Assembly (NCBI GenBank): GCA_022646745.1
Contig: CP060262.1
Coordinates: 2,610,001-2,642,000, forward strand
Source: Planctomycetales bacterium
GTDB taxonomy: Bacteria > 4484-113 > JAFGCY01
DNA: 32,000 nt
Direction of reading: 5' to 3'
The translations under genes and the position numbers were made by a program. The stretch's first letter is position 1. Every line of letters begins with the position of its first letter. Positions 7,661 through 32,000 of this stretch are shown piece by piece. Below the pieces are notes generated by a model. That model was not told the origin of the DNA and did no database searches. It saw nothing but the letters and a program-made list of their open reading frames with translations.

Positions 7661-8032
7661 ATGAGCGATCTGCCTCCCGTGATTGATCCCCTTGAAAAGC
7701 AGCAGTACCTGCAGGGCGACTGGTATCCGGCCCTGCTTGGACAGGTGAATGACACTGCAATCAAGCTGGCGCGTATCCACGGGGAGTTTGTCTGGCATTC
7801 GCACGCCGAGGAGGATGAGCTGTTCCTCGTCGTCAAGGGGCGGATGCGACTGGAGTTCCGCAATGGGGTACGGGAGCTGGAGGCGGGACAGATGATCATC
7901 GTGCCGCGTGGCCTGGAGCACCGTCCGGTGTCTGAAGAGGAGTGCCTGATCCTGCTGGTTGAGCCTGTCAGCACCGTGAACACAGGTGACGCTGAAAGCG
8001 ATATGCGGCGGGAGCAGTTGCCAGAGCTGTGA
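7661..8032 (+). CDS. cupin domain protein
   Basis: A small beta-barrel pattern: FVWHSHAEEDELFLVVKGRMRLEF ... GQMIIVPRGLEHRP, which reads as cupin motifs 1 and 2. The ATG at 7661 lies downstream of GGGAGG. The ORF track's TTG at 7628 is an alternative start. Confidence 0.7.
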   Translation: MSDLPPVIDPLEKQQYLQGDWYPALLGQVNDTAIKLARIHGEFVWHSHAEEDELFLVVKGRMRLEFRNGVRELEAGQMIIVPRGLEHRPVSEEECLILLVEPVSTVNTGDAESDMRREQLPEL

Positions 8033-8096
8033 GTAAGTTACGAATTGAATACGTATGTAAAATCTAGATGAACTTTCTCAGGATTGGAAATGAGAA

Positions 8097-8125
8097 TTCA
8101 CCATCTACTTACATTTGTGTACAAT
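8097..8125 (+). promoter_or_regulatory. candidate sigma70-like promoter for the 8159 gene (TTCACC-17 nt-TACAAT)
   Basis: Hexamers at 8097-8102 and 8120-8125 have 17-nt spacing and sit in an AT-rich intergenic region about 35 nt upstream of the ATG. This is pattern matching only. Confidence 0.3.
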
Positions 8126-8158
8126 CGACTTGAATCTGCCCCCTGAATCAGGTGTGAA

Positions 8159-10687
8159 ATGACTAAAAATAGCAGGCTGCTCTCAGCTTTAATCATCCTT
8201 TTGATTGCAGGTGTAATCGGTTCCTGCGTGAATCGTGTCCCGGTACTTTCTACCCAGGAACAGCCAGCGACAGAGCAGCTTGATGAAACACAGTTTCCTG
8301 ATAATGCAGATCAAGAACCTCTGAGTCCTGTTGATAAGCTTGAGTTGCCCGGGATACCAGCTGGTCAGACTGAGCAGTCAAGCTCCAAGCGAAGCAGTGC
8401 CAGCACTATAACCCTTGATGGCAAAGCGCGGGTAAACGCTGCGGGCTCCAATAATCGTGTTTCAGGTAGCAGCTATGTGCTAGCAGCTGATGCTGAGCAG
8501 CAGACGGCCTGGGCCTGGTACACCCTTGGGGGTCTTTCGATTGACAGACCAGTGAACCTGAACGTCAACGTGGCTCCTGCAGCCATTTTACCCGGGGGCG
8601 AAGAACAGCCTGTTTCCTACTACGTCGGTGTAAGCAACTACAGCACTTACCGCTGGCAGTGGTTTGGTCCCTTCGATGCTTCAACGGAGATAGTGCTCAA
8701 TTCCGACGCTAACAGGGAGCGCTATGTCAGTGGAATCGACGTTCCACAGATGCATGCCGTGATCCTGAGCAGTTCCGAGGCCGGCACTGCCCTGCAGATT
8801 GATTCTCTGGAAGTGGAACTGAAGCAGGGATTTAAGTCGACAGGGTATCAAACTACACGTCCAATTAAGATGCAAGCACAAGCCAGCAATACATTGGGCG
8901 ACAAGTCTGCTTCTTCTCTATCAAAAGAACATTACATTACTCTCACGTGGAATTTTATTCCAGATCCTCTTGCACCGGAGAATGAAGCAACTACGGTAAG
9001 GGTAAATCGCCGGCTTGTCGGCGATTCAGTGTGGCAGCCGATAGGAGATGCTAAACTGGGACCAATTAGTGAGCAATATATTGATTTTGCGGATAATGCA
9101 CAGCCTTTTGAAGGCACAGCCGGGCGAACTTACGAATACTTCCTTGGCTTCTTTAATATTGGTGGTTATAATTCAAGCGGAATTATTAGTGAACAGATTC
9201 CCCTTCTACAGCCTCACAATCTTATCGCTACACCTAGTGGAAACCCACATCAGATAACACTAACTTGGGAAAAGTCATCCGACGCTACATCATACGAAAT
9301 TTTTCGTGATACTATTGGGCAACCTTACGCTGTAGTAGGTGATGTGGATTCATATGTGGATGAACAGTGCGGAAATATTCCGCACGAATACTGGGTGAAG
9401 TCCAAAAATGAGTGGAGCGAATCAGCTTTGGATATCTCTGCCATAGGAATTGCAGTTAATTTGAGCAACTATAACTTAAGTACGAACAATAGTTTGTGGC
9501 CACTCTCTTATAGGGTTCACCCTGATGGGAGTTTTGCAATCCTTGTGCAAAGTGATAATTACAGTATTTACAAATCGACCACAACAATACCAATAAGTGC
9601 TGAGGATTGGATTGAGATACCGATTATTCCTAATTCGCAAGGGGAAAACAGAATAGAACCTTTCAATTTTCAAATTGATGACAATGGAATATATCACATA
9701 TGTGCCGTAAAAACATACACAATGGTCCAGGAACCTCCATTGCCCAATCTTAACAAGTTCGAATTATATTATGGCAGATCAATCAACGACAATCCTCTAT
9801 CTGTCGAAGACTGGGAATTTACTGCGGTGGACATTAGTGATGAATTTGAGGAATCGTCGCTTAAAAACCAATTGTATCCAAGTATCACTTTTTGTTGTGG
9901 AGTTCCGCAAATCATGTATTATGAAATCACGCCAAGTTATGAAGCAGTTGATGTAGTTAGATATGCCATTTCTAATGTATATTATCCTCAAAATGAAGAA
10001 GATTGGTCTTTATTCGACTTGACGGAAGAATTTACCAGAGTTCGCCTCCCATTTAACATGGAGGATTTACTGGTTACTGCACTAGATAAGCCGGCTGCCG
10101 TAGTAACCGGATTAGATGCTAATGGTGATTGGAGATTTAGCTATCTGCGTGGTGCAAATCAGAATCCACAGGATCAGACAGAGTGGGAAATTGTGAAAGG
10201 TCCTGTAATGAAAGAAATTAACAATACATTTAGTATCGCAAACATTAATGGCAACGCTGTATGTTCAAGTGGGCAGGTGAGCTTACTGAATGAGAATCCT
10301 ACCGCGCTAATGGAGATAGCCATTGGATTCGACCAGATTAATAGCAGTTCCTGGTTTCACGAAGTGATCTATCCTGCACCAACTCAATCACCTTACGAGT
10401 TTTCACAATGGTTAAGTAAATGGACTGAATTGGATAATTATCAGATAACTAGTTTGATTACACGGACAAATGAGTTAACTCCAACATTCAGAAATAGATT
10501 AATCATCGGAAAGGACGTTACAACATCTGAATCTAGGTGGTGTCAGTCAAACGAGCTGCATACATCAGCTGTTAATGCTGCATTTTGTAAATCTATGACC
10601 CTTATAAACTCCGACGCTATATTAATAGTTACATATGAGTTTAACGATCCGATTCAGACATTAGTAAGTGTCATTGATCTCACTTGA
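8159..10687 (+). CDS. large predicted lipoprotein: shared N-terminal module, two Fn3-like domains, then a low-GC repeat-containing C-terminal half
   Basis: 842 aa with a signal peptide and lipobox (LIAGVIGS|C). Residues about 98-222 are homologous to the N-terminal module of the 19454 gene (YYVGVSNYSTYRWQW versus LYFGIANYATGRWEW). Fn3-like units are marked by ITLTWNF... and ITLTWEKSSDATSYEIFRD. The C-terminal part has foreign-looking AT-rich codon usage. Confidence 0.8.
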   Translation: MTKNSRLLSALIILLIAGVIGSCVNRVPVLSTQEQPATEQLDETQFPDNADQEPLSPVDKLELPGIPAGQTEQSSSKRSSASTITLDGKARVNAAGSNNRVSGSSYVLAADAEQQTAWAWYTLGGLSIDRPVNLNVNVAPAAILPGGEEQPVSYYVGVSNYSTYRWQWFGPFDASTEIVLNSDANRERYVSGIDVPQMHAVILSSSEAGTALQIDSLEVELKQGFKSTGYQTTRPIKMQAQASNTLGDKSASSLSKEHYITLTWNFIPDPLAPENEATTVRVNRRLVGDSVWQPIGDAKLGPISEQYIDFADNAQPFEGTAGRTYEYFLGFFNIGGYNSSGIISEQIPLLQPHNLIATPSGNPHQITLTWEKSSDATSYEIFRDTIGQPYAVVGDVDSYVDEQCGNIPHEYWVKSKNEWSESALDISAIGIAVNLSNYNLSTNNSLWPLSYRVHPDGSFAILVQSDNYSIYKSTTTIPISAEDWIEIPIIPNSQGENRIEPFNFQIDDNGIYHICAVKTYTMVQEPPLPNLNKFELYYGRSINDNPLSVEDWEFTAVDISDEFEESSLKNQLYPSITFCCGVPQIMYYEITPSYEAVDVVRYAISNVYYPQNEEDWSLFDLTEEFTRVRLPFNMEDLLVTALDKPAAVVTGLDANGDWRFSYLRGANQNPQDQTEWEIVKGPVMKEINNTFSIANINGNAVCSSGQVSLLNENPTALMEIAIGFDQINSSSWFHEVIYPAPTQSPYEFSQWLSKWTELDNYQITSLITRTNELTPTFRNRLIIGKDVTTSESRWCQSNELHTSAVNAAFCKSMTLINSDAILIVTYEFNDPIQTLVSVIDLT

Positions 10688-10756
10688 TTTAATGGAAATT
10701 ATCAATAATATAATTAGAATATTAAAATACAAATAAAATTTTCTAAAAGTAGTACT

Positions 10757-10785
10757 TTGCATTAGACCGCGATTCGTTGTACATT
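10757..10785 (+). promoter_or_regulatory. candidate sigma70-like promoter (TTGCAT-17 nt-TACATT) ahead of the cohesin-like/M6 operon
   Basis: Hexamers at 10757-10762 and 10780-10785 have 17-nt spacing and sit at the end of a very AT-rich spacer. This promoter would give a leader of about 160 nt containing two hairpins. Confidence 0.3.
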
Positions 10786-10953
10786 ACTAGTATCAACTAA
10801 TTGAACCCCTGTCTCACACACAGGGGATGGTCCTGAGTGGTAAGGCACCACTTTTGCAGGATCGGCTTCCGATTCCCCTGGTAATTTGCGCGGCGATCTG
10901 CCGCGGCTGGCCAGGGATCGGCGGTTGGGTAACAATCTGGCTTGAGGAGCAGC

Positions 10954-11487
10954 ATGAGGAGAACCGCGGAAGGCGGCTGGACACGCGTCCTTGCCCTTAT
11001 TCTGGCAGTGCTGGCACTGCAGCTTTGTGCTTCGTGCGGCGGTGGTGGCAAATCCGAAGGCGGATCTCAGGCCCAGGAGCAGCGAACTGTTCTTGAGCTC
11101 AGCCTGAACCCCGTCAGCCAGCCGGATGGCACCATCCATGTTGAACTCAGTGCAACAAATGCCGCAAGGCTCTATCAGCTGTCATCGAGGCTAAGCTTCG
11201 ACAGCGCAGCTGTCCGGCCGCTTGGGCCGGCTGTTCCGGGCAACCTTCCGGCACAGGATGCAATCTTCTACAGCAATGACCGGCAGTCCGGATACATCCC
11301 GGTGGCTTTCACCAACACCAAGGCAGCCGCAGTCGGCCAGCAATCCGGCATCCTTTATTCAGTTGAATTCGAGGTGCTGGACGCGGGGCTCGATCCGCGT
11401 TTTGCCCTGGTCACGGACCCGCAGTACCTGATTGCGCGCGACAATAGTGCATCTGACATTGAACTCTCCGTCGAGGTGCAGCGTTGA
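10954..11487 (+). CDS. small lipoprotein with a single cohesin-like beta-sandwich domain
   Basis: The ATG at 10954 has GAGGAG 4 nt upstream; the ORF track's TTG at 10942 is less likely. Signal peptide RVLALILAVLALQLCAS|CGGGG is followed by a Gly/Ser/Gln linker. After that comes about 140 aa with a cohesin-like pattern (GTIHVELSATNAARLYQLSSRLSFDSAAVRPLG ... GYIPVAFTN ... GILYSVEFEVL). The cohesin call rests on pattern resemblance only. Confidence 0.7.
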   Translation: MRRTAEGGWTRVLALILAVLALQLCASCGGGGKSEGGSQAQEQRTVLELSLNPVSQPDGTIHVELSATNAARLYQLSSRLSFDSAAVRPLGPAVPGNLPAQDAIFYSNDRQSGYIPVAFTNTKAAAVGQQSGILYSVEFEVLDAGLDPRFALVTDPQYLIARDNSASDIELSVEVQR

Positions 11488-14237
11488 TCCATTTGCGCAC
11501 CTCCGTTTCCCTGATCCTGCTGATGGCAGCCATGGCTGTGGTGCATTCCGTCGCCTTTGCCTTCACTACTCCCAGCAATGAGGAGTGGGCAGAACTTGAG
11601 CGGCAGGGAAAGGCTGAATCAACCAGGCAGTGGATGCGAGAGCTTAGCGATGAGGTCAGCACAGTCCCGCAACTGAGCATTGCCGAGAAGCTGCAGCTGA
11701 TTGATGAGGGTTACGGACTGCCGACGCAGATCTTCAGCCCGGGACAGGCGGCTGGTTCGATGCGTGTCAACTTTGACAGCAACGAAGTGATAGACGAGCG
11801 CGACATCCTCGGGATGGGATTCGACTTCACTGACAAGAACGCCTCCACCACCGTGCCGCACGGATCACCGAAGGGCCTGACGATCCTGCTCAAGTTCACG
11901 GACCAGGCACCGACCGACAAGACATTCAACAGCAGCGGTACGCTTGTCAATGATGTCAACCACGATGCGGCCTGGGCTGACAACAAGTGGTACGACCAGG
12001 CTGCCCCTCCGACGATCGAGGACTGCAGCGTTTCCAATTACTACGACGCCAACAGCGGTGGCCGGCTCACACTGGATGGCGATGTGTTCAACAACGGAGC
12101 AGTGTGTGACGCAGATGGCTGGATCACCTGCAATGTGACCCGGGCCAGCATCACGAACTCGACACAGGTGTACAACGCGATCGAGAATGCCCTGCAGCAG
12201 GCGGATCCGCATATCGATTACAGCAATTACGACTCGAACAATGACGGCTTCATTGACGGCCTGACGGTGATCTATGCCGGGGCCAGCAACAGCTCAACCA
12301 TCTTCTGGCACTTCCGCTTCGTTGCCATCTACATGACCGCCGATGGCGTAACGATAAACTCCGGAATCTTCACGGGCGAGCAGGCCCAGGTCCGCATCTG
12401 GTGCCATGAATTCGGACATGAGCTCGGGCTGCCTGATCTCTATGACACCGGCGGATCACCCGCCGTGGACGGTGTCGGCCAATATGGCCTGATGGCGGGC
12501 TGGTACACGGGTCAGGGTACACATCCGCAGTTCATGACAGGCTGGTCGCGGCTCAAGCTGCGTTTTGTTGACCCGGTCGACATTCCAACAACAACTTCGT
12601 TGACGGGATACACGCTGAGCAGGGTCACGCAGGACAATCCGGGTGACACATTGCTTAGAGTGTGGCGTAACGGTGCACCGGGACCGGAGTACTTCCTTGT
12701 CGAATACCGGGACGGCACCCACTCATGGGACTCAAGCCTGTTTGGCAACGGTGGCCTGTGCTACTGGCATATCGATGAAACACTGACATCCGCGATCAAC
12801 CGAGACAACGCATTTGATCCGCAGCGTGTGCACCTTGAATGTGCCGGCTCCAGCCAGGATCCGATGCAGAACGACGCATGCTGGTACGACGGCTTCAACG
12901 GCGCGGATGCCTTTGATTACTTTGCTGACAACACTACTCCGAATGCTCACGACAACGACGGCGATACCACCGAGGTAAGACTAGAGCCGACCAGTGGCCG
13001 CGGTGCCGCCACGATGACGCTCGACATCCGCAACAACAACGGGGCAACCATCCCGACCCTGTCCTTTGATTCTCCGGCAAACGGCGCAACCGTCAGCGGG
13101 GATGTCACCTTTGACGTCACGAGCAACGCAGCCAACCGTGTGGAGTATTTCGTGGATGGCTGCCTCAAGCATGTGGAGAATGGTCCCGGCCCGTACTCAG
13201 GATTCAGCTGGAACACACGCAGCGCACTTGATACATCGGTGGAGCTTCGTGCTGTCGCATACAACAGCAGTGGCAACGACCCCGTGCGCAGCCTGACCCG
13301 CACAGTGACTGTCAGCAACGGCCAGCAGGGCGGCGAGTCAATGATATTCACTGAGAATTTCAACGGCTATTCCAGTGTGACTGACAGCACCCTGCTGAAC
13401 CTCTGGAACCTGCACGATGACAACATGGGCATGGAGTTCCAGCTGCGCACTGACCCGGCCTACAACGACACCGGCAAGGCACTGGCATTCGCCCAGACCA
13501 GTTTCCCGACACCGAACAACGGCAGCACGCAGGACCCGAATGCCGGGGTGTACCAGGGCCAGGATGACGACTGGCTGATGACACCACGCATTGGACTGTT
13601 TGGTTACACTGATGTCAAGTTCAAGATGTCAACCGCATTCCGGATTGACGGAGCCTGGGGCGAAGCGATGCTCGTGCTGCAGGTGTCGGACGATGATGGC
13701 GCTACCTGGGACGACCTTCAGTCCTTCAACTGGTGGCAGGACAGCAACACCCAGTGGTACACGGGCTGGTGGCGAAACGACGGCGGCACCCAGGACTTCT
13801 GGGCGGACCGGACCGTCAACATCGACCCGTCCTACATCAACAAGGATGTCTACTTCCGGTTGCTGTTCATCGGTGGCCGGACCTACAACGTCGGCTTTGC
13901 CGTGGATGAGATCCAGGTGACCGGCACACCGCTTCCGCTTAGCCTGAGCAGCGTCAGCCCTGACCGGGCCAAGGTTGGTGACAGCGTCACCCTCACCGGC
14001 GCAGGTTTCGGTGATACGCAGGGCAGCGGAGAGGTTCGCTTCAGCGACGGAGCCGGTGGCCACGTGGTTGCCAGTATCACCTCCTGGACCAATACGCAGA
14101 TCGTCTGCACGGTGCCAGGTGGTGCAAAATCAGATGCGAACGGAGTCTGGGTCTACCAGAACTTCACAGAGACCAGCAAGCTGGCCTTCACGGTCATCCT
14201 TGCAGCGCCGAATCTCCAGGGATTGGACCAGATTTAG
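11484..14237 (+). CDS. secreted M6-family (immune inhibitor A-like) zinc metalloprotease with C-terminal Ig-like, MAM/choice-of-anchor-J-like and IPT/TIG modules
   Basis: 917 aa. The TTG start overlaps the upstream stop (TTGA), with GAGGTG 5 nt upstream. The signal peptide ends AFA. The zinc site HEFGHELGLPDLYD (12405 onward) is the M6 signature. The C-terminus carries an IPT unit (VSPDRAKVGDSVTLTGAGFG ... SWTNTQIVCTVP). Confidence 0.9.
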   Translation: MIHLRTSVSLILLMAAMAVVHSVAFAFTTPSNEEWAELERQGKAESTRQWMRELSDEVSTVPQLSIAEKLQLIDEGYGLPTQIFSPGQAAGSMRVNFDSNEVIDERDILGMGFDFTDKNASTTVPHGSPKGLTILLKFTDQAPTDKTFNSSGTLVNDVNHDAAWADNKWYDQAAPPTIEDCSVSNYYDANSGGRLTLDGDVFNNGAVCDADGWITCNVTRASITNSTQVYNAIENALQQADPHIDYSNYDSNNDGFIDGLTVIYAGASNSSTIFWHFRFVAIYMTADGVTINSGIFTGEQAQVRIWCHEFGHELGLPDLYDTGGSPAVDGVGQYGLMAGWYTGQGTHPQFMTGWSRLKLRFVDPVDIPTTTSLTGYTLSRVTQDNPGDTLLRVWRNGAPGPEYFLVEYRDGTHSWDSSLFGNGGLCYWHIDETLTSAINRDNAFDPQRVHLECAGSSQDPMQNDACWYDGFNGADAFDYFADNTTPNAHDNDGDTTEVRLEPTSGRGAATMTLDIRNNNGATIPTLSFDSPANGATVSGDVTFDVTSNAANRVEYFVDGCLKHVENGPGPYSGFSWNTRSALDTSVELRAVAYNSSGNDPVRSLTRTVTVSNGQQGGESMIFTENFNGYSSVTDSTLLNLWNLHDDNMGMEFQLRTDPAYNDTGKALAFAQTSFPTPNNGSTQDPNAGVYQGQDDDWLMTPRIGLFGYTDVKFKMSTAFRIDGAWGEAMLVLQVSDDDGATWDDLQSFNWWQDSNTQWYTGWWRNDGGTQDFWADRTVNIDPSYINKDVYFRLLFIGGRTYNVGFAVDEIQVTGTPLPLSLSSVSPDRAKVGDSVTLTGAGFGDTQGSGEVRFSDGAGGHVVASITSWTNTQIVCTVPGGAKSDANGVWVYQNFTETSKLAFTVILAAPNLQGLDQI

Positions 14238-14363
14238 GCGGATACGCTGATGGCAGCGTGCTGCCGTCAAGGGGTGGACAGGAGTGGATAGGATGGGGCT
14301 GGACCCGCCGGCAGGGAGGCAGGCAGGAGTGGCCCAGGTAAGTAAAGTAGGTAGGTGGTTGCT

Positions 14364-15944
14364 ATGAGGAAACTAGTCTTGGCGGTGCTGACCCTGCTGG
14401 TTCTCGCCGGCTGCGGTGGAGGCGGCGGTACGTCCGGCACCGAGATCGTGCAGGTGCCGGCGCAGGAGCAGGGGCTTCAGATAATCAACCAGCAGAGCAC
14501 GGACGGAAACCTGGTGCTCGGTGTGATCAAGGATGCCAGCGGTGTACCGATCGGCGTGCAGATCCAATGGACCCGTGTGGACGTCGCCGGTGTGATGGGA
14601 TACTACATCTATCGAGATACCGCGTCCCTCCCGGGTGGGAACCCGGCCGGACAGGAATCAAAACGCATCAATGGTGGCAGCATCATCGGCCAGAGTGGCA
14701 CAGGCACGCAGACCCTGACCTTTGATGACATCATGGCTCCCCCGCCGTCTATCAATGACCAGTTCTTCTATCGCATGACGGTCGTCAACTCCACGAGTGA
14801 TGAGAGCGACATGTCCAACGAACTGTCGATCACGATCGCACAGCACACGATCACGACTGTCACCCAGGGCGGCGGCAGCATCGGTGACAGCGTGACGATC
14901 AACGGTTCCAACTTCGGCAGCAGTCAGGAAGCAACGGACTTCGTCTACTTCACGAACTCCAGCGGTACTACGAACGTTGAAGCCAATGTGACCAGCTGGA
15001 CCCCGAGCCAGATCATCTGCGACATCCCGTACGGAGCAGCTGACGGCCTTGTCGGTGTCCAGATCAACGGCGTGCTTGTACTTGCCCCGACCGGACAGGA
15101 AATCGACTACAACGAACCGAGCGTCACCAATGTGGCCCCGACCCAGGACTGGGTGCAGAACCTGACCATCGTGATTGACGGTGTGGACTTCGGCCCGGAT
15201 CCGAACGGTGCAGGTACCAGCACAGACGTGCTGTTCGGCACCACTCCGATCCTGCTGACGGACATCGTCAGCTGGTCTGACACCGAGATCCAGTGCAAGG
15301 TGCCTGCGGCTGCAACGGGACTGACCGTCTCGCTGACTGTGGATGTTGCTGGCAACGTCAGCAATGGCACGAGCTTCCTGCTCCTGCCGCACATCGACTC
15401 GATCAGCCCGACCAGTGGCAACACAGGCGTGACCTTTGATGTCTCGGGAACGAACTTTGGCAGCGTACAGGGAACCGGTAGCGTCACCCTCGCGGGCGTG
15501 AACTGCTCCGTCAACAGCTGGGCAAACGGCACGGTCAACGTCACCGTCCCGGCTGCGGCAGTGGATGGCGCCGTGCTCCTCACCCGTGACGACACCCAGG
15601 CTTCATCCCTCTCCGGATTTGACGTCATTCCGGCCATCACCAACGTCTCGCCCAACCGTCGTGTCGAGGGTGAGCAGGTGACCATCACCGGCTCAGGCTT
15701 CGGTGCGACCCAGAACGGCAGCACCGTGACCTTCAACGGTGGTGGTGGAGTGGTGGCCACGAACATCATCAGCTGGGGCCCGACGACGATCGTCTGCGAG
15801 GTTCCGGCCGGTGCATCGACTGGTACCATTACCGTCCACATCAATGACGCCTCCGTCGGAAGTGACATTGATGACGCGACCAGCGGCTCGAACATCACTG
15901 TGATCCTTGCCGCTCCGAACCTGACTGGCGTCGGCCAGCTCTGA
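14364..15944 (+). CDS. lipoprotein: one Fn3-like domain plus four IPT/TIG repeats and a conserved C-terminal tail
   Basis: Lipobox LVLAG|CGGGGG. The Fn3-like unit reads IQWTRVDVAGVMGYYIYRD ... FFYRMTVVN. There are four units of the type P.I..V.P..G..G..VTI.G..FG ... SW....I.C.VP. I prefer the ATG at 14364; the GTG at 14355 is an alternative. Confidence 0.85.
   Translation: MRKLVLAVLTLLVLAGCGGGGGTSGTEIVQVPAQEQGLQIINQQSTDGNLVLGVIKDASGVPIGVQIQWTRVDVAGVMGYYIYRDTASLPGGNPAGQESKRINGGSIIGQSGTGTQTLTFDDIMAPPPSINDQFFYRMTVVNSTSDESDMSNELSITIAQHTITTVTQGGGSIGDSVTINGSNFGSSQEATDFVYFTNSSGTTNVEANVTSWTPSQIICDIPYGAADGLVGVQINGVLVLAPTGQEIDYNEPSVTNVAPTQDWVQNLTIVIDGVDFGPDPNGAGTSTDVLFGTTPILLTDIVSWSDTEIQCKVPAAATGLTVSLTVDVAGNVSNGTSFLLLPHIDSISPTSGNTGVTFDVSGTNFGSVQGTGSVTLAGVNCSVNSWANGTVNVTVPAAAVDGAVLLTRDDTQASSLSGFDVIPAITNVSPNRRVEGEQVTITGSGFGATQNGSTVTFNGGGGVVATNIISWGPTTIVCEVPAGASTGTITVHINDASVGSDIDDATSGSNITVILAAPNLTGVGQL
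14844..15908 (+). repeat. four tandem IPT/TIG-type coding repeats (about 81-92 codons each)
   Basis: Units begin at HTITTVTQ, PSVTNVAP, PHIDSISP and PAITNVSP. Each contains a G.[ND]FG motif and a SW...[IV].C/V.VP motif. Confidence 0.8.
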
Positions 15945-15975
15945 TCTGTAACTTGGACTAGACAGGAACTCTGAC

Positions 15976-17658
15976 ATGAATGGGATTCTCTTGAAGCTGA
16001 CAACTATGGCGATGGGCCTGATCCTGGCCGCATCCCTCAGTTCCTGCGGCGGCAGCCCTGCCGCCAGTGAACTGGCGACAGGGGAATCCCTGCAGTCACC
16101 GCAGCTCCTCGGAGTCGGTACGGGAGACCGTGCCGTCTCCGGGGCGCCTGCGGGAATCTTTGTGACCTGGAACCGCGTGGACGACCCGCGCGTGACGGGT
16201 TACTACCTTTACCGTGACACGGCATCCATTCCGGATCCGCCGGTGGACGGTGTGATCGACCCGGGCCTGCGCGTCAATGGTGGCGGACTGATCGCCAACC
16301 CTGACAGCGGTGCCACGGTGACATTCAATGACATCTTCTCCGTCGTGGTGGGTGAGACCTACTTCTACCGCCTGACGGTCGTCAACCTTGATGGCGATGA
16401 AAGCTATCCCAGCAATGAGCTGAGCTGGACCATCAGCCTGCATACCGCTGGCAATGTGACACCAGACAGTGCGTACTGGGGTAATGACGTAGTGGTGGAC
16501 GGGACGAACTTCCTCAGCTACAACGCGGCCACTGACTTCGTCGTGTTCCCGACATACGATGGTGGCACCATTGAGGGCGCAATCGTGGACTGGCAGGACA
16601 CCGCGATCACTGTCACTGTGCCGGAGCCGGCGGTCAGCGGTCCTCTGGGCGTGCTGATCGATGGTGTGGTTTCCTTCACTGACAACAGCCTGACCATTCT
16701 TAATCCCGTCATAGGGGATCTCGATCCGAATCCGGGTTTTGTCGGCCAGGCTGTCACGATCAATGGCGTCGGCTTCGGGGCCAGCCAGGATGTTGGTGAC
16801 GACCTGCTGTTCGGTGGTGCCAGCTTCACAGGTACGATCAGCAGCTGGTCTGACAGCGCAATTGAGATCGTGATTCCTGAAGATGCAGTTGCCTCGAGCG
16901 TGCAGGTGGTCAAGAATGCAGCCAACAGCAATGAGCTGCAGTTTATTCCCCGCGCGGAGATTCTCAGTGTTGACAACGATGGATTCCAGGAAGGTGAGGA
17001 AATCACCCTGACAGGCCGCCATTTCGGGGCCGTTGAGGGAACCGCCGCCCTTGATGATGCAACTGTACTGACCATCAGCAGCTGGACCGACACGGAAGTC
17101 ACCCTGTTGCTTGCCGGAAGCGCCGGTGCCCACGGCATCATCCTCACGTCAGATGCCAATGGCACAAGCAATACGTTTGACTACAACATCGGTGAGCCGC
17201 TCAGCGTGTCACTGGATGGATTCACGGCTGGCCAGGTCTATCGTCCTGGTGATGACCCGGTGGCCGGGGTGACAACGGCTGATGATGCTGAACTCGTCGA
17301 GCTGCTGCTCGGCGGCAATGTGGTAGCCAGCTCGGATACCGCACCTTTCGAGGGCATGACCCTTGTGATCGCTGACTACATCAATGGTGCCTATGACGTG
17401 GAACTGCGTGCCACACGTCGCAGCATTTCCGTCACGAGCGATCCGATCGGCATCCTGCTCTACTCGCTGGTTGGCGACGTAAACGCGGACGGCAGCGTGG
17501 ATGAACTGGATCGGGATGCCCTGCTGCCACTGATCGTGAACCCGCTGCCTCCGCTGGAGATCATGCCTTGGTGGGACACGGATGAGGATGGTACGGTGAC
17601 CGAGGCTGACCTCAGCCTGGTCGGTTACAACTTCGGCAACATCCTCAGCAGCGACTAA
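15976..17658 (+). CDS. lipoprotein paralogous to the preceding gene: Fn3-like domain, three IPT/TIG repeats, an Ig-like module and a C-terminal dockerin
   Basis: Lipobox LAASLSS|CGGS. The Fn3-like unit (VTWNRVDDPRVTGYYLYRD ... YFYRLTVVN) is collinear with the 14364 product. The IPT units are as in the upstream gene. The C-terminus carries two EF-hand-like dockerin segments. Confidence 0.85.
   Translation: MNGILLKLTTMAMGLILAASLSSCGGSPAASELATGESLQSPQLLGVGTGDRAVSGAPAGIFVTWNRVDDPRVTGYYLYRDTASIPDPPVDGVIDPGLRVNGGGLIANPDSGATVTFNDIFSVVVGETYFYRLTVVNLDGDESYPSNELSWTISLHTAGNVTPDSAYWGNDVVVDGTNFLSYNAATDFVVFPTYDGGTIEGAIVDWQDTAITVTVPEPAVSGPLGVLIDGVVSFTDNSLTILNPVIGDLDPNPGFVGQAVTINGVGFGASQDVGDDLLFGGASFTGTISSWSDSAIEIVIPEDAVASSVQVVKNAANSNELQFIPRAEILSVDNDGFQEGEEITLTGRHFGAVEGTAALDDATVLTISSWTDTEVTLLLAGSAGAHGIILTSDANGTSNTFDYNIGEPLSVSLDGFTAGQVYRPGDDPVAGVTTADDAELVELLLGGNVVASSDTAPFEGMTLVIADYINGAYDVELRATRRSISVTSDPIGILLYSLVGDVNADGSVDELDRDALLPLIVNPLPPLEIMPWWDTDEDGTVTEADLSLVGYNFGNILSSD
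16441..17193 (+). repeat. three tandem IPT/TIG-type coding repeats
   Basis: Units start near TAGNVTPD, NPVIGDLDP and PRAEILSVD. Each contains G..FG and SW[ST]D[ST].[IV] motifs. Confidence 0.75.
17473..17655 (+). other. dockerin module (two Ca-binding-loop repeats) at the C-terminus of the 15976 product
   Basis: GDVNADGSVDELDRDALLPLI ... WDTDEDGTVTEADLSLVGYNFG. Both segments fit the D.[ND].DG.[IV]...D dockerin repeat and have the usual spacing of about 30 aa. Confidence 0.7.
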
Positions 17659-21493: not shown

Positions 21494-21513
21494 TCCTGGT
21501 CCAAGCTGAAGAG

Positions 21514-21540
21514 AAAAGGCCACCCGCGGGTGGCCTTTTT
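21514..21540. terminator. bidirectional rho-independent terminator between convergent genes
   Basis: AAAA GGCCACC CGCG GGTGGCC TTTTT. This is a 7-bp GC stem flanked by an A-run and a T-run, lying between the stops at 21493 (+) and 21567 (-). Confidence 0.8.
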
Positions 21541-21566
21541 GCTTTCTATTCAAAGAGTGCCCGGAA

Positions 21567-22049
21567 TCAGGCAGACTGGTTCAGGAACTTGCGCAGCCTG
21601 TCGTCCAGCACGCTCTGCCAGGTGGTGAGGATGGAATGCTTGCTTATCTCTGCATGCTCACCGCGCTTCAACCAGGATTCATGGCGCAGCTTAAGCATGC
21701 TGCTATCCTCGCTCGGACGGTCAATCGTAAAGCACACCTCGTGCGGGAACACACCGGCGCGTGGCCGCAGGATCCTGATCCGGATCAACCTCTCCGTGAC
21801 AACCTCCGTTACCAGTCCGAGCAGTGCGCCGTCCTCACCGCCACAGGATTCCATGAACCTGCCGCCCACGGTAGGCTCAAGCCTGACTTCGGTGGTGTCG
21901 CTCAGCAGGGTGTAGGGTGCTTTCCACCACTGGCCGATTTCTGTGGTCAGTGCCCGCCAGACGGCGGACGCGGGAACGTTGAATTCGAACTCGTCCTCGA
22001 GCAGGAACTCAAACAGTTCCACTTCGGTAGATTGAAAGCGATGTGGCAT
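21567..22049 (-). CDS. SRPBCC / AHSA1-like (START superfamily) protein
   Basis: The ORF track extends this to 22310, but the extension is low-complexity and would overrun the divergent promoter and the start of the next gene. The internal ATG at 22049 (MPHRFQS..) gives 160 aa, with FEFNVPASAVWRALTTEIGQWW typical of AHSA1-like SRPBCC proteins. Confidence 0.7.
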   Translation of the reverse strand: MPHRFQSTEVELFEFLLEDEFEFNVPASAVWRALTTEIGQWWKAPYTLLSDTTEVRLEPTVGGRFMESCGGEDGALLGLVTEVVTERLIRIRILRPRAGVFPHEVCFTIDRPSEDSSMLKLRHESWLKRGEHAEISKHSILTTWQSVLDDRLRKFLNQSA

Positions 22050-22239
22050 TGGTTCATCCGATCCCGGATCCCAGCTGGGAGTGCTGATTTTAGCATTCAG
22101 GCCAGATCCACCATTTGGCGGGACAGTATGATTCCTTCGCTGGATTGGTGCAATAAAATAACAGCGTATCGAAAATAAAGCTGATCTATAAAGGTAATTA
22201 AGTGAATCAGATACGCTTGGGACGGGAGTTGATATCAGG

Positions 22240-28248: not shown

Positions 28249-28335
28249 GGAGAGGTGACCGAGTGGTTTAAGGTGCTCGCCTGGAAAGCGGGTGTACGGT
28301 AATACGTACCGAGGGTTCGAATCCCTCCCTCTCCG
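28249..28335 (+). tRNA. tRNA-Ser (anticodon GGA), class II with a long variable arm; no encoded CCA
   Basis: Hand-folded. The acceptor stem is GGAGAGG/CCTCTCC with discriminator G. The anticodon stem is CTCGC/GCGGG with loop CTGGAAA. The variable arm is GTACG-GTAATA-CGTAC. The T arm is GAGGG-TTCGAAT-CCCTC. Confidence 0.9.
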
Positions 28336-28355: not shown

Positions 28356-29036
28356 TCAGCCGCTGACCTTGATCCAGTACCACTCGTTTTCATGCATGCT
28401 GTGCAATGGCTCCATGCCCGCCGGCATTGGAAGCACTACCTTGTCCGCACTGATGTTCTTGAAGGCCCGGAACAGGGTGCCGATATCGCTTTCCTTGATG
28501 AAGTGATGTGGGATGCCGACTTCCAGGCCACTGCGCAGGACTACTGTCTGCTCATCAATGAAGTCAGCCTGGTGTTCAGCTGGAGCATTGCGGATGCCCG
28601 GCAGGCTGATGAGAGCGGTGCCGCTGATGGCCTTGATGCGCTTGATCTCGGCAATAGCCCGTTCCAGGTCGCGTTTCTTGCCGTGGTGGATCACGTCTAT
28701 TGCAAGGATCACGTGGAAGTAATTTCCACCGTAATTTAGCTTGCGGTAGTCCGCACTGAGGATATTGACCGTCTGCTCGAACCCCGCCAGGGTTTCACGG
28801 GACTGGACCAGAGCTTCATTGGACCAGTCGATGCCGGTGGCCCGCCAGCCGATCTCAGCCAGCTGCTTCAGGTGCCGTCCGTTTCCGCATCCGATATCCA
28901 GCGCGCGACGCGACTGCTGGGGCAGGTCCCCGATGTAGCTCAGTACCCGCGGATCAGGCGGCAGGCTGCGAAGAGCCTCATTGGCGTTGCGCCGGTCCCA
29001 GATTTCCTTTTGCTCGGGAACAGTAAGGTCTCTCAT
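28356..29036 (-). CDS. class I SAM-dependent methyltransferase
   Basis: 226 aa. Motif I is ALDIGCGNGRH, followed by a post-I acidic residue (GIDWS) and AIDVIHH. It starts 10 nt downstream of the rsmD stop on the same strand. The + strand ORF 28338..28739 is its shadow. Confidence 0.8.
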   Translation of the reverse strand: MRDLTVPEQKEIWDRRNANEALRSLPPDPRVLSYIGDLPQQSRRALDIGCGNGRHLKQLAEIGWRATGIDWSNEALVQSRETLAGFEQTVNILSADYRKLNYGGNYFHVILAIDVIHHGKKRDLERAIAEIKRIKAISGTALISLPGIRNAPAEHQADFIDEQTVVLRSGLEVGIPHHFIKESDIGTLFRAFKNISADKVVLPMPAGMEPLHSMHENEWYWIKVSG

Positions 29037-29046
29037 TTATGAGCCT

Positions 29047-29622
29047 TCAGCTTTCGCTGCCAGTCTTGGGCCTGAATACCCAGAGCGAGGCATTCCCGGC
29101 CTTTCGCCGTTCCAGCAGCTCAAGACCTGCATTTGACTCAGGAAGGGTATCCGGTGTTCGCATGATTATAAGCGCATCCGCTGACCAGATGTCCGGTGCC
29201 TGAGCCAGCCCCGGCAGCAGAGAGCGGGCCATGTCGGTGATGTAAGGCGGGTCGAGGAAACAGCACGAGACCTTCATACCTTCGGGCAGTTGCTTGGCTA
29301 CAACCCCCGTACACCTGCGTCCATCAACCTTCAGCACCCGTACCCGCTCCTCAATCCCGAAATCACGGGCCGAGGCGCGCAGGTCATCACAGGTGCGGCG
29401 GTCCACTTCAACACTGAACAACAGCGGTGCGCCTCGGGAAATGGCCTCAAGGCCGACGATCCCGCTGCCGGCGCAGATATCGAGGAAGGCCCCGGACTGC
29501 AGCCGATCAGGAGTGAACAGGTTCATTACCAGTTCACGGACGAATCCCGTGGCCGGCCGGGCCCGGCTGTTCTTCGCCAGCCTGATTTCCCGCCCCTTCA
29601 GTTCGCCGGAGGTGATCCGCAT
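29047..29622 (-). CDS. rsmD: 16S rRNA (guanine966-N2)-methyltransferase
   Basis: MRITSGELKGREI ... RPATGFVRELVMNLF ... FLDICAGSGIVGLEAISRGA ... FLDPPY. These are the RsmD family motifs. The ORF track's GTG at 29652 would add 10 aa and remains an alternative start. Confidence 0.85.
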   Translation of the reverse strand: MRITSGELKGREIRLAKNSRARPATGFVRELVMNLFTPDRLQSGAFLDICAGSGIVGLEAISRGAPLLFSVEVDRRTCDDLRASARDFGIEERVRVLKVDGRRCTGVVAKQLPEGMKVSCCFLDPPYITDMARSLLPGLAQAPDIWSADALIIMRTPDTLPESNAGLELLERRKAGNASLWVFRPKTGSES

Positions 29623-29672
29623 CCGGGGATTATAGTGCTGGCTCCCGGGCACTCTTTGTTTAACCCTTACTT

Positions 29673-29681
29673 TGCTATAAT
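29673..29681 (+). promoter_or_regulatory. candidate extended -10 promoter element (TGcTATAAT) for the SIR2-TPR gene
   Basis: TG-N-TATAAT lies in the 69-99 nt divergent spacer, 41 nt upstream of the ATG at 29722. Confidence 0.4.
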
Positions 29682-29721
29682 CTGAAGTCTCACCGTATTA
29701 CATTGCAAGGGGTAGTTTCCT

Positions 29722-32000
29722 ATGTCAATCCGTCGTCGCATCAAGGTGGAGCAGCGTGACCGCAAGGACGTGCTGAACGAGGCGATCATCTCCCAGGATG
29801 AGTTCCTCGAGAAGTTCTTCTCACGGCCCAGCAAGTTCCAGTTCTTCTTCGGTGCGGGCATGTCAGTCAGCGCGGGCATACCCCTGTCCAAGGACATCAT
29901 TGACGAGATCATCGTCAAGGTCTTCGAGAAGTCAAACCCGGCCAAGCGCGGCCAGTTGTCAGCGGACGAACTGTCCGACTGGGTCAGCCGCGAGAAGTGG
30001 TTCAACCCGAACTACGCCTACATCTCAGCGCTTGAAAAGGAATACCCCTCAGCCTACCTGCGCACTGACCTGTTCCGCCGCTACATGGAAGGCCGCTTCC
30101 CCAGCCCGGCGCAGCTCAACTTCGCCATTGGCGTCAAGGAAGGCAAGCTCAACAACCGTGTGTACACCACCAACTGGGACACGCTGACTGAGGATGCCTT
30201 CTACTGGCTGCGTGGCACCAACTGCACCACGATCAAGGGTCCCGACCAGCTTGTGGAAGTCAAGGACGAGGAGCACCGCTACGTCATCAAGATGCACGGT
30301 GACCTTGACCGCTACGATGTCCGATACCTGCGTGAGGGCATGGCCAAGCACAATGACGACCTACGTGACTTCCTCGTGAAGTCCATGAGCAATGTCGGCC
30401 TTGTGATCATGGGATACAGCGGCAGTGAGTACTCCGTGATGAACATGCTGATGGAAATCGTGCATGACCATCCGGACGTGCTGTCCGGCGGTCTCTACTG
30501 GGGCTACCAGGGCAACATGAAGCATGTGCCCGAGTCGATCACCGACCTGATGGCGATCGGACTGGACAAGGGCAAGGACTTCCGCATCTTCGAAACTGAC
30601 GACGCGGACTTCCTCTTCGAGAAGGTTGCCACCAAGCTCGGCTTCTCCAGCATCGAGAGCGAGCTGGACGTCGCCTTCTTCCGCTTCAACAAGATGACCT
30701 ACGGCGAGCTGCGTGAGCGTGAGGGCAGGGTGGTTGCCAACCTGACTGACCTCGTGCACCGTGACCTGCTTGACGAGGGCTTCCTTGTCCGCGACTACAA
30801 CCTGATCCACGAGGTCTGGAAGTCCGAGACCAGCGGCATGTTCAAGAAGAAGGAAGAGAAGGAACGTGCCGCCCGTGACGCGGAGCGCAAGCTGATCAAC
30901 CACTGCTTCAACGACCTCAAGCACCAGCAGTTCGCTGATGCGGAAGTGAAGCTGACCGACGTTGCCAAGCACTTCCCCGAGAACCCGCATGTCTACTGGG
31001 GTCTCGGCTGGGCCAACTACTGCATGGGCCGCTACCGCGAAGCGCTTGAGTTCTTCGACCGCTCGCTGGCTCTGGATCCCAAGAGCTGGGGCACCTACAT
31101 TGCGCGTGCGATGTGCCAGCACGACCTCGGCCAGTACGGCGAGGAGATGGCGAACTACGACAAGGTGCTCGAGCTGAAGGGCAACATTGACTACATCTGG
31201 TACAACCGCGGCCTTGCCGCCCACAAGCTCGGTGACCGCAATGCGGAGATCGAGTCCTACGAGAGCGCAGTCGCCGTCAATGGCGGTTACTACAAGGCCT
31301 GGTACAACCTCGGCCTGTGCTACTACGAGCAGGGCAACATCCTCACTTCGCTCAACTGCTTCAAGCGGGCTCGCGACATCAACGCCAAGTTCTTCAATGC
31401 GCGCTACAACTGCGGCATCCTGCTTGGCAAGATGGGCCAGGACGGCCAGTCGATCGCTGAGTTCGAGCACTGCATCGAGCTCAATGAAGACGATGACATG
31501 TCCTTCAAGCAGCGCGGCACGGCCGAGCTGATGATCTCCAAGTATGACAAGGCCCAGGAGAGCTTCGAGGAGTACACCCACACGCAGCCGGGCGATCCGG
31601 AGGCCTGGGCGAACCTCGGACTGTCATACTTCGGCACAGAGCATTACGACGAAGCGCTGGAGTATACGGACAAGTACCTTGACCGCTATCCCGAAGATGC
31701 GCGCATCTGGTACAACCGCGGCCTTGTGCTCGAGCAGCTCGGTGACCGTGAGAAGTCCATGCAGGCCTTTGACAAGTCCCTTGAGCTGAATAATGACAAC
31801 GACATGGTCTGGTACCGCAAGGCGCTGCTGCTTGGCAACATCGGCCAGTACGGCGGCCAGATCGAATTCCTCACGAAGTTCCTGAACCGCAACTCACAGG
31901 ACCTGCGAGGCTGGTTCGAACTCGGTGAGGCGAACCGCAAGCTCGGTGAGGCTGCCGAGTCCCGTGAGGAAGTGGTGCGCTACTACACCGCAGCTGTGCA
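29722..32000 (+). CDS. SIR2_2-like (sirtuin-fold NADase-type) domain fused to a long TPR array; 3'-truncated by the window
   Basis: This ORF is absent from the supplied track because it has no stop in the window. I translated it by hand: the ATG at 29722 is preceded by an in-frame TAG at 29713, and the frame is open for 759 codons with GC3-rich codons. The motifs are FFFGAGMSVSAGIP (29842 onward), VYTTNWDTL (30163 onward), KMHGDL (His codon at 30295) and LVIMGYSGSEY. From about 30988 there are at least 10 TPR-like units, for example YWGLGWANYCMGRYREALEFFDRSLALDP and AWYNLGLCYYEQGNILTSLNCFKRARDIN. Confidence 0.85.
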   Translation, partial: MSIRRRIKVEQRDRKDVLNEAIISQDEFLEKFFSRPSKFQFFFGAGMSVSAGIPLSKDIIDEIIVKVFEKSNPAKRGQLSADELSDWVSREKWFNPNYAYISALEKEYPSAYLRTDLFRRYMEGRFPSPAQLNFAIGVKEGKLNNRVYTTNWDTLTEDAFYWLRGTNCTTIKGPDQLVEVKDEEHRYVIKMHGDLDRYDVRYLREGMAKHNDDLRDFLVKSMSNVGLVIMGYSGSEYSVMNMLMEIVHDHPDVLSGGLYWGYQGNMKHVPESITDLMAIGLDKGKDFRIFETDDADFLFEKVATKLGFSSIESELDVAFFRFNKMTYGELREREGRVVANLTDLVHRDLLDEGFLVRDYNLIHEVWKSETSGMFKKKEEKERAARDAERKLINHCFNDLKHQQFADAEVKLTDVAKHFPENPHVYWGLGWANYCMGRYREALEFFDRSLALDPKSWGTYIARAMCQHDLGQYGEEMANYDKVLELKGNIDYIWYNRGLAAHKLGDRNAEIESYESAVAVNGGYYKAWYNLGLCYYEQGNILTSLNCFKRARDINAKFFNARYNCGILLGKMGQDGQSIAEFEHCIELNEDDDMSFKQRGTAELMISKYDKAQESFEEYTHTQPGDPEAWANLGLSYFGTEHYDEALEYTDKYLDRYPEDARIWYNRGLVLEQLGDREKSMQAFDKSLELNNDNDMVWYRKALLLGNIGQYGGQIEFLTKFLNRNSQDLRGWFELGEANRKLGEAAESREEVVRYYTAAV

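Follow-up and report, generated by a model that had tools for sequence, protein, structure and literature searches.

Does a bacterial SIR2 domain of the immune type, fused to a long array of tetratricopeptide repeats (TPRs), necessarily belong to an anti-phage system? SIR2_2/SIRim domains are now read almost automatically as anti-phage effectors that deplete nicotinamide adenine dinucleotide (NAD). The question is raised by a gene at the end of a 32,000-nucleotide stretch of Planctomycetales bacterium DNA (contig CP060262.1, positions 2,610,001 to 2,642,000; hereafter the window). The gene, which we call SIR2-TPR, encodes an N-terminal SIR2_2 domain, a linker and 16 TPRs. Its nearest relatives are all NAD-cleaving defence enzymes (NADases), yet its genomic behaviour is that of a core gene under strong constraint. 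The initial annotation, made from the letters of the window, treated it as a candidate sensor-effector, possibly an island gene of variable presence beside a tRNA. Our comparison shows that SIR2-TPR is a single-copy, vertically inherited, strongly constrained, core-like gene of one uncultured lineage.

A core-like gene of one lineage

The plus-strand frame at positions 29722–32000 of the window contains 759 codons and zero stops by direct translation. As the initial annotation had noticed, this frame was missing from the list of open reading frames (ORFs), because it runs past the window end. Via the exact RsmD neighbour protein we reached an overlapping 344-kb metagenomic contig (L001), which is identical to the window over 29722–32000 and carries the full-length gene of 957 amino acids (L001:7058–9931, minus strand). 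The stop codon lies approximately 600 bp past the window end, and the window holds the 5′ part of the gene. An indel of approximately 11 bp at about 21500–22200, inferred from the shifted coordinates of a 679-residue PKD-domain gene, lies upstream of SIR2-TPR; window and contig are thus closely related, non-identical assemblies.

An exhaustive phmmer search with residues 1–404 against 1.84 billion cluster representatives returned only four clusters under 1e-30, with identities of 94, 46, 43 and 40% and lengths of 957–1016 residues. All four have a common architecture of SIR2_2 and about 16 TPRs. Past them the scores drop sharply to about 28% identity, where proteins of the same SIR2 clade carry STAND nucleoside triphosphatase (NTPase), Macro, kinase plus NUDIX, HEAT/TPR or APAZ-sized C-termini. 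No relatives were found in IMG/VR, and the plasmid and phage collections contained only SIR2 relatives below 30% identity. A word-indexed protein search yielded only fragments plus a small number of distant proteins.

When one genome of each GTDB species was scanned, 21 loci were located in 21 different assemblies, one copy each. All are metagenome-assembled genomes (MAGs) of uncultured organisms, labelled 'bacterium', 'UBP7' or 'Planctomycetales/Planctomycetia bacterium'. The gene is full length in 19 of the 21; one copy is truncated by a contig end, and one (L011:10001–13026) is split by a frameshift into two overlapping ORFs of 638 and 497 residues, which is either an assembly error or a pseudogene. 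Locus L020 lies in 'Planctomycetales bacterium 4484_113', after which GTDB phylum 4484-113 is named. Because L020 is this MAG and the habitats match (activated sludge and similar), we infer that the whole set belongs to that phylum. A scan of metagenome contigs anchored on HisRS gave matches of 36–68% identity, mostly 2–5 kb long and too short or too distant, none of which reached the SIR2-TPR slot.

The loci form three synteny groups, and within each the slot is fixed among housekeeping genes. The order in clade 1 (L006–L012, L021) is rsmD (−), SIR2-TPR (+), a 272-residue membrane coiled-coil protein (−), a CinA/COG1058-like gene (+), RecX (−), CCA enzyme (+) and HisRS (−), which is also the gene order of the window. 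SIR2-TPR in clade 2 (L013–L022, L025) is followed by a Flavoprotein gene (PF02441) and usually by BshC, with PhoH farther on. SIR2-TPR and the Flavoprotein gene are 1–3 bp apart in eight loci and 17 bp apart in L025, and they overlap by 4 bp in L020, which suggests co-transcription with housekeeping genes in this clade. In clade 3 (L023, L024, L026) a DegT aminotransferase gene lies on one side of SIR2-TPR, and PTPS with a pyridine-nucleotide-disulphide oxidoreductase on the other. Variable presence next to the tRNA across related genomes, which the initial annotation had proposed to examine, finds no support in these fixed slots in three subclades or in the single copy in each of the 21 MAGs. 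As far as it can be tested here, the conservation is that of a syntenic core gene, and the reading as a variable island gene is not supported.

The gene also diverges together with its surroundings. Pairwise identities between SIR2-TPR proteins track those of the neighbours (r = 0.75–1.0 for families with at least six pairs) and are higher in nearly all pairs. The mean identity of SIR2-TPR is 81% against 62% for rsmD (r 0.96), 76% against 55% for CinA (r 0.88), 81% against 59% for the CCA enzyme (r 0.92) and 82% against 78% for HisRS (r 1.00). The corresponding values are 65% against 46% for BshC (r 0.89) and 66% against 54% for the Flavoprotein (r 0.75).

Signs of mobility and of defence partners were sought in the same neighbourhoods. 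No integrase, transposase or defence gene was found among the neighbours examined, and neither a prokaryotic Argonaute (pAgo) gene nor a TIR gene was present among them according to Pfam families and PADLOC. PADLOC, which the initial annotation had proposed to run, returned one generic methyltransferase-domain match for ten neighbours and no defence partner among them. We considered the gene at 28356–29036 as a defence component and rejected it, as its weak PADLOC 'mad2' match covers the SAM-methyltransferase domain only. Neighbour comparison revealed no partner gene common to all three clades. The candidates for a conserved partner were each confined to one clade: the 272-residue coiled-coil protein and CinA to clade 1, Flavoprotein and BshC to clade 2, and DegT and PTPS to clade 3.

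The tRNA that suggested an island, tRNA-Ser(GGA) at 28249–28335 on the plus strand (ARAGORN), is located 1387 bp upstream of the gene, in agreement with the 1.4 kb given initially. It is present upstream in 7/7 clade 1 loci scanned, with reversed orientation and variable distance in L009–L012. No repeat of tRNA-Ser of at least 12 nt occurs in 20.6 kb of L001 around the gene, a region that extends about 7.6 kb past the window end, and a tRNA-linked island was therefore rejected. The tRNA-Ser is a conserved clade 1 neighbour and represents ancestral synteny, not an integration site.

These observations bear on the proposal that SIR2-TPR is a single-gene abortive infection system that became fixed in the lineage core. 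In such a system the TPR array would bind a conserved phage protein and the SIR2 domain would be released, depleting NAD+ and stopping the cell. The protein itself offers several arguments for it. Its SIR2 domain is nearest to SPARSA, DSR2, KomC and ThsA and has conserved catalytic residues, the modules fused to the same SIR2 clade (STAND, Macro, kinase-NUDIX and APAZ) are typical of conflict systems, and the TPR array has changed faster than the SIR2 domain. A distant SIR2_2-TPR protein adjoins an integrase in a Haloferax provirus. According to PMC11850899, DSR2 is a protein of about 1000 residues with the same N-terminal SIR2 and C-terminal α-solenoid sensor. The genomic record argues the other way: there is no defence island, mobile-element signature or partner gene, the slot is conserved and co-diverges with housekeeping genes across 21 species, conservation is above that of HisRS, the repeat number is constant, and close relatives are absent from the viral contigs, plasmids and phages searched. 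This pattern is opposite to the turnover expected for immune genes. We consider a lineage-fixed abortive infection system doubtful, if still a serious contender, and a mobile abortive-infection gene is not favoured for SIR2-TPR.

The SIR2 domain

The catalytic domain comprises residues from about 30 to 305 (29809–30636, plus strand) and is predicted to be a SIR2_2/SIRim-type NAD-binding Rossmann fold with a helical insert. Pfam assigns residues 146–252 to SIR2_2 (PF13289; 37.8 bits, E=2.5e-9, gathering cut-off 24.5), and the orthologues P0007–P0009 are likewise above this threshold. Canonical SIR2 (PF02146) is not among the listed Pfam matches. The best PADLOC profile is Aga_SIR2, the SIR2 of SIR2-APAZ proteins with short pAgos (E=6e-37, residues 33–305). 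A phmmer search of PDB sequences identified the SPARSA 'Sir2 superfamily protein' (8in8, 8jkz, 8jl0; E=1.8e-14, residues 22–302).

The AlphaFold2 (AF2) model of residues 1–404 is confident over residues 10–310, with a predicted local distance difference test score (pLDDT) of about 85–95. Its best Foldseek match in the PDB is 8y80_E of SPARSA (E=6.7e-13, TMq 0.62). The Foldseek top 50 consist entirely of defence NADases, with SPARSA followed by DSR2, KomC and ThsA; no canonical sirtuin or SirTM is among them. Taken together, the sequence matches and the predicted fold support placing the domain in the immune-type SIR2_2/'SIRim' NADase branch. Characterised bacterial members of this branch are NADases (PMC12700824; 10.1101/2024.09.18.613514).

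The motif set named in the initial annotation is present throughout. The glycine-rich NAD-binding loop GAGMSVSAGIP corresponds to residues 44–54 (29851–29883, plus strand), and its pattern GAGxSxS(A/S)(G/E)xP is found in 20/20 orthologues. The TTNWD motif at residues 149–153 (30166–30180, plus strand) contains the predicted catalytic Asn151 and Asp153, both present in 20/20 orthologues and invariant even against distant SIR2_2 proteins. The HGD motif (30295–30303, plus strand; KMHGD, residues 190–194) provides the putative catalytic His192, found in 19/20 orthologues. The phmmer alignment pairs TTNWD with TTNFD of SPARSA, and HGD with HGD. According to PDB entry titles, the DSR2(H171A) and KomBC(H146N) structures carry mutations at the equivalent of His192. 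GYSGSE is read directly at residues 231–236. By homology, the domain most likely cleaves the nicotinamide–ribose bond of NAD+, as an NAD+ glycohydrolase or possibly an ADP-ribosyl transferase.

One orthologue departs from this pattern. In L025, which corresponds to the P0008 cluster, HLYGF replaces KxHGD and the His is changed to Tyr, while TTNFD and the GAG loop are kept. Either catalysis would be lost or altered in this sublineage, or else the His would not be strictly needed. The change is what could be said for a catalytically dead scaffold: a TPR platform whose SIR2 fold would be retained only to bind NAD or to give structure. Retention of Asn151 and Asp153, of the GAG loop and, with this one exception, of His192 down to 38% overall identity argues instead for kept chemistry, and we regard a dead scaffold as very improbable.

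The helical insert (residues 55–148) contains zero Cys in the direct sequence reading, and the domain therefore has no zinc ribbon. SIR2_2 proteins are described as being without the zinc module that deacetylation needs (PMC12700824). This concerns a further alternative, a regulator particular to the lineage: the TPR array would recruit a cellular substrate, which the SIR2 domain would deacylate or, in the manner of SirTM, ADP-ribosylate. Arrays of TPRs serve generally as scaffolds for protein binding, and the core-like conservation of the gene is consistent with such a role. So are the tight coupling to the Flavoprotein gene and then BshC in clade 2 (1–3 bp in most loci) and the CinA/COG1058-type gene 0.8 kb downstream in clade 1. 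The missing zinc-binding module, needed for deacylation in canonical sirtuins (PMC12700824), and the absence of canonical sirtuins and SirTM from the Foldseek top 50 argue against it, and the lack of a neighbour common to the three clades means that there is no substrate candidate. We therefore hold a protein-modifying enzyme to be improbable.

The linker and the TPR array

The SIR2 domain is followed by a conserved linker, residues 306–387 (30637–30882, plus strand), which includes the DLLDEGFLVRDYN segment and a KKKEEKER basic-acidic helix. A linker had been expected from the window, at about 100 residues; its length is about 80. Conservation among orthologues is 0.59 for the linker compared with 0.64 for the SIR2 domain, with peaks of 0.72 at residues 341–360 and 381–400. 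Residues 319–381 have pLDDT values below 50 in the AF2 model of the 759 residues encoded in the window, and the model of residues 1–404 is likewise of low confidence in the linker.

The complete TPR array comprises 16 units (residues 388–942), one of which has an 11-residue insertion. Units 1–11 are encoded in the window (30883–32000, plus strand), where at least 10 had been counted initially. They are recognised by Pfam TPR families (TPR_1, TPR_2 and TPR_8, E=1e-35 to 1e-38), and the AF2 model contains 11 helix-turn-helix pairs in residues 375–758. The array length is 544–555 residues in 13 of 14 tabulated orthologues and 586 residues in L025, and conservation is even along the array. A match to MamA-like TPRs (NCBIfam NF040959) was rejected as generic TPR similarity; it reached 173.7 bits, summed over four TPR stretches, against a cut-off of 200. 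No NTPase, P-loop or NACHT domain was found among the 25 best of 32 Pfam families at E≤0.1, and Pfam and PADLOC profiles detected no APAZ, STAND, SLOG or Macro module in the protein.

Proposed function

The explanation we favour, tentatively and at somewhat less than even confidence, casts SIR2-TPR as an NADase of the immune type that was domesticated or became fixed, with a TPR array that recognises a ligand both conserved and probably endogenous. The protein would be a cytoplasmic, single-chain, NAD+-consuming enzyme, with an N-terminal SIR2_2 domain that has an intact NAD loop and the predicted catalytic Asn and His. The 16-TPR solenoid and the linker would form the regulatory or binding part and keep the SIR2 domain inactive. 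A protein ligand or self-assembly would then switch SIR2 on, by analogy with the C-terminal solenoid in DSR2 and with oligomerisation in SPARSA. Analogy with vertebrate FAM118 and SARM1 suggests a role as a stress, dormancy or NAD-homeostasis switch.

A DSR2-like sensor-effector design is a reasonable biochemical model by analogy, because of the architecture, the immune-type branch, the kept catalytic residues and the fact that the nearest structures are defence NADases. To this extent the initial proposal of a TPR sensor and a SIR2 effector survives, in its architecture and its immune-type branch; what does not survive is the variable tRNA-adjacent island gene. The accompanying caveat, that SIR2_2-TPR proteins could also be regulatory enzymes, was apt.

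Several observations weigh against a domesticated enzyme with an endogenous ligand. All characterised close structural relatives in the Foldseek results are anti-phage NADases, and the SIRim clade overall is 12-fold enriched near defence systems (10.1101/2024.09.18.613514). Identity to the window protein among the 19 other orthologues is 43–94% for the SIR2 domain, 37–92% for the linker and 32–95% for the TPR array. Outside the nearest orthologues, the ranges are 32–62% for the TPR array and 43–82% for SIR2; the TPR array thus diverges faster, which also fits a sensor tracking a changing target. The proposed autoinhibition stands by analogy: the AF2 model of the 759 window residues has a predicted template modelling score (pTM) of 0.47, at which occlusion of the active site by the TPRs is not readable. 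The His to Tyr change in L025 counts against it as well. Universality in the lineage would be a further step, as the loci were located through the SIR2-TPR gene itself.

A more far-reaching version has SIR2-TPR as an indispensable core gene across the candidate phylum, with a 16-TPR array that senses an endogenous protein or metabolic state and thereby controls NAD+, dormancy or programmed death. We judge this possible and rather unlikely. If true, SARM1 or FAM118 would have a counterpart in prokaryotes, and the 4484-113-like lineage would have a signature protein. If the domesticated or fixed NADase that we favour is real, bacteria too can domesticate sirtuins of the immune type, as has been suggested for FAM118 in vertebrates, and a domain-based 'defence' label can mislead. 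The compact design, without an NTPase, would also be usable for studying how a repeat array gates an NADase.

The surrounding locus

The divergent gene upstream of SIR2-TPR encodes an RsmD-family methyltransferase (29047–29652, minus strand; PF03602, Pfam E=1.4e-30), as noted initially, and is separated from it by a 69-bp gap. Conserved beside SIR2-TPR in clade 1, it represents context, not a partner. The intergenic region contains a putative extended −10 element, TGCTATAAT, at 29673–29681 on the plus strand, 40 bp upstream of the ATG. This element, already pointed out in the initial annotation, can be read directly in the sequence; it was not listed in a consensus promoter scan, in which no −35 hexamer qualified. 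A possible Shine-Dalgarno sequence, AAGGGG, is located at 29707–29712 on the plus strand. The GC content of the gene (0.58–0.60) equals that of the flanks, and composition had been described correctly as matching the host.

Downstream, the clade 1 coiled-coil ORF (L001:6232–7050, plus strand; 272 residues) combines a transmembrane segment at its N-terminus with a long coiled coil. It is convergent with SIR2-TPR and is located 7 bp past its stop codon. This ORF has no Pfam or PADLOC match, is found in clade 1 only and evolves fast (28–73% identity). The CinA/COG1058-type gene (MoCF_biosynth plus FLAD1_M; L001:5524–6231, minus strand) is on the same strand as SIR2-TPR, approximately 0.8 kb past the gene end. 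Substrates of COG1058 enzymes include ADP-ribose and NAD-related nucleotides. A link between CinA and NAD metabolism is conceivable, but the adjacency is absent in clades 2 and 3, and cinA-recX is an ordinary housekeeping pair. The Flavoprotein of clade 2 is UbiX/CoaC-like and has about 203 residues (for example L014:12881–13489).

Elsewhere in the window, an 842-residue ORF (8159–10687, plus strand) is located in a low-GC patch at about 8000–11000, where GC is 0.40–0.49 compared with 0.58–0.63 elsewhere. It carries a lipoprotein-like signal (..LIAGVIGSC), has no Pfam or PADLOC match and may be a surface protein gained by horizontal transfer. Surface proteins with M6-peptidase and IPT/TIG domains come next, at 11484–17658.

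Comparison with known systems

In both sequence and predicted fold, the SIR2 domain of the window protein is nearest to that of SPARSA SIR2-APAZ (PDB 8in8, 8jkz, 8jl0, 8y80), and the GAG, TTN.D and HGD motifs of the two align. The PADLOC match covers profile positions 2–282 of 558 and ends at residue 305, and no APAZ (PNTD1/PNTD2) region is matched. The 16-TPR array stands in the place of APAZ, there is no pAgo gene nearby, and the SIR2-TPR gene is core and syntenic, not mobile.

DSR2 and DSR1 share the overall design, a single chain of about 1000 residues with an N-terminal SIR2 and a C-terminal α-solenoid, and the likeness is one of design only. DSR2 is the second-best structural neighbour in Foldseek (E about 1e-8), but the resemblance is limited to the SIR2 fold at 15–19% identity, the repeats of SIR2-TPR are canonical TPRs, and there is no defence-island context. 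No DSR family was found among 16 PADLOC families at E≤0.1. Thoeris ThsA also has the SIR2_2 NADase fold and matches weakly (PADLOC E=1e-6, residues 147–199; Foldseek E=4e-8); unlike ThsA, the window protein lacks a SLOG or Macro sensor domain, and no ThsB/TIR gene was seen among the neighbours examined. Canonical sirtuin deacylases are set apart by their Zn-ribbon Cys4 module, which is absent here, the insert being without Cys pairs.

A SIR2-type effector combined with a TPR sensor is also found in SIR2-STAND-TPR proteins (Avs5; SAMD9-like), and P0010, in a neighbouring SIR2 clade, carries a STAND NTPase. Compared with this type, the window protein has no NTPase and only an 82-residue linker between SIR2 and the TPRs. 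The same two-module architecture as in SIR2-TPR occurs in shorter SIR2_2-TPR proteins (P0158, P0160–P0165 and Halfgib1 HfxHg1_085), which have 555–732 residues, 21–28% SIR2 identity and far fewer repeats, and are all uncharacterised. They occur in different settings, P0160 among metabolic genes and the Halfgib1 protein beside an integrase. The latter (L047; Haloferax virus Halfgib1, MW344766.1, 12552–14219) is a 555-residue SIR2_2 plus TPR protein annotated merely as 'tetratricopeptide repeat protein'. It is found near a XerC/D integrase and a Dcm methylase in a pleolipovirus provirus, and is mobile and distant (21% identity).

SIR2_2-TPR fusions are thus already visible in databases, none of them characterised. 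TPR-fused SIR2_2 proteins appear in PMC12700824 only as tree labels, and the string 'SIR2-TPR' was found in no paper of the library searched. The SIR2-TPR family is set apart from them by its long, fixed array of 16 TPRs, a design with no NTPase or partner gene, and core-like evolution. By analogy, the best precedent for domestication is vertebrate FAM118A/B (SIRanc), in which a SIR2_2/SIRim domain became vertically inherited, clade-fixed and non-mobile (PMC12700824; 10.1101/2024.09.18.613514). FAM118A/B differ from SIR2-TPR in being eukaryotic and filament-forming, and in having no TPR array.

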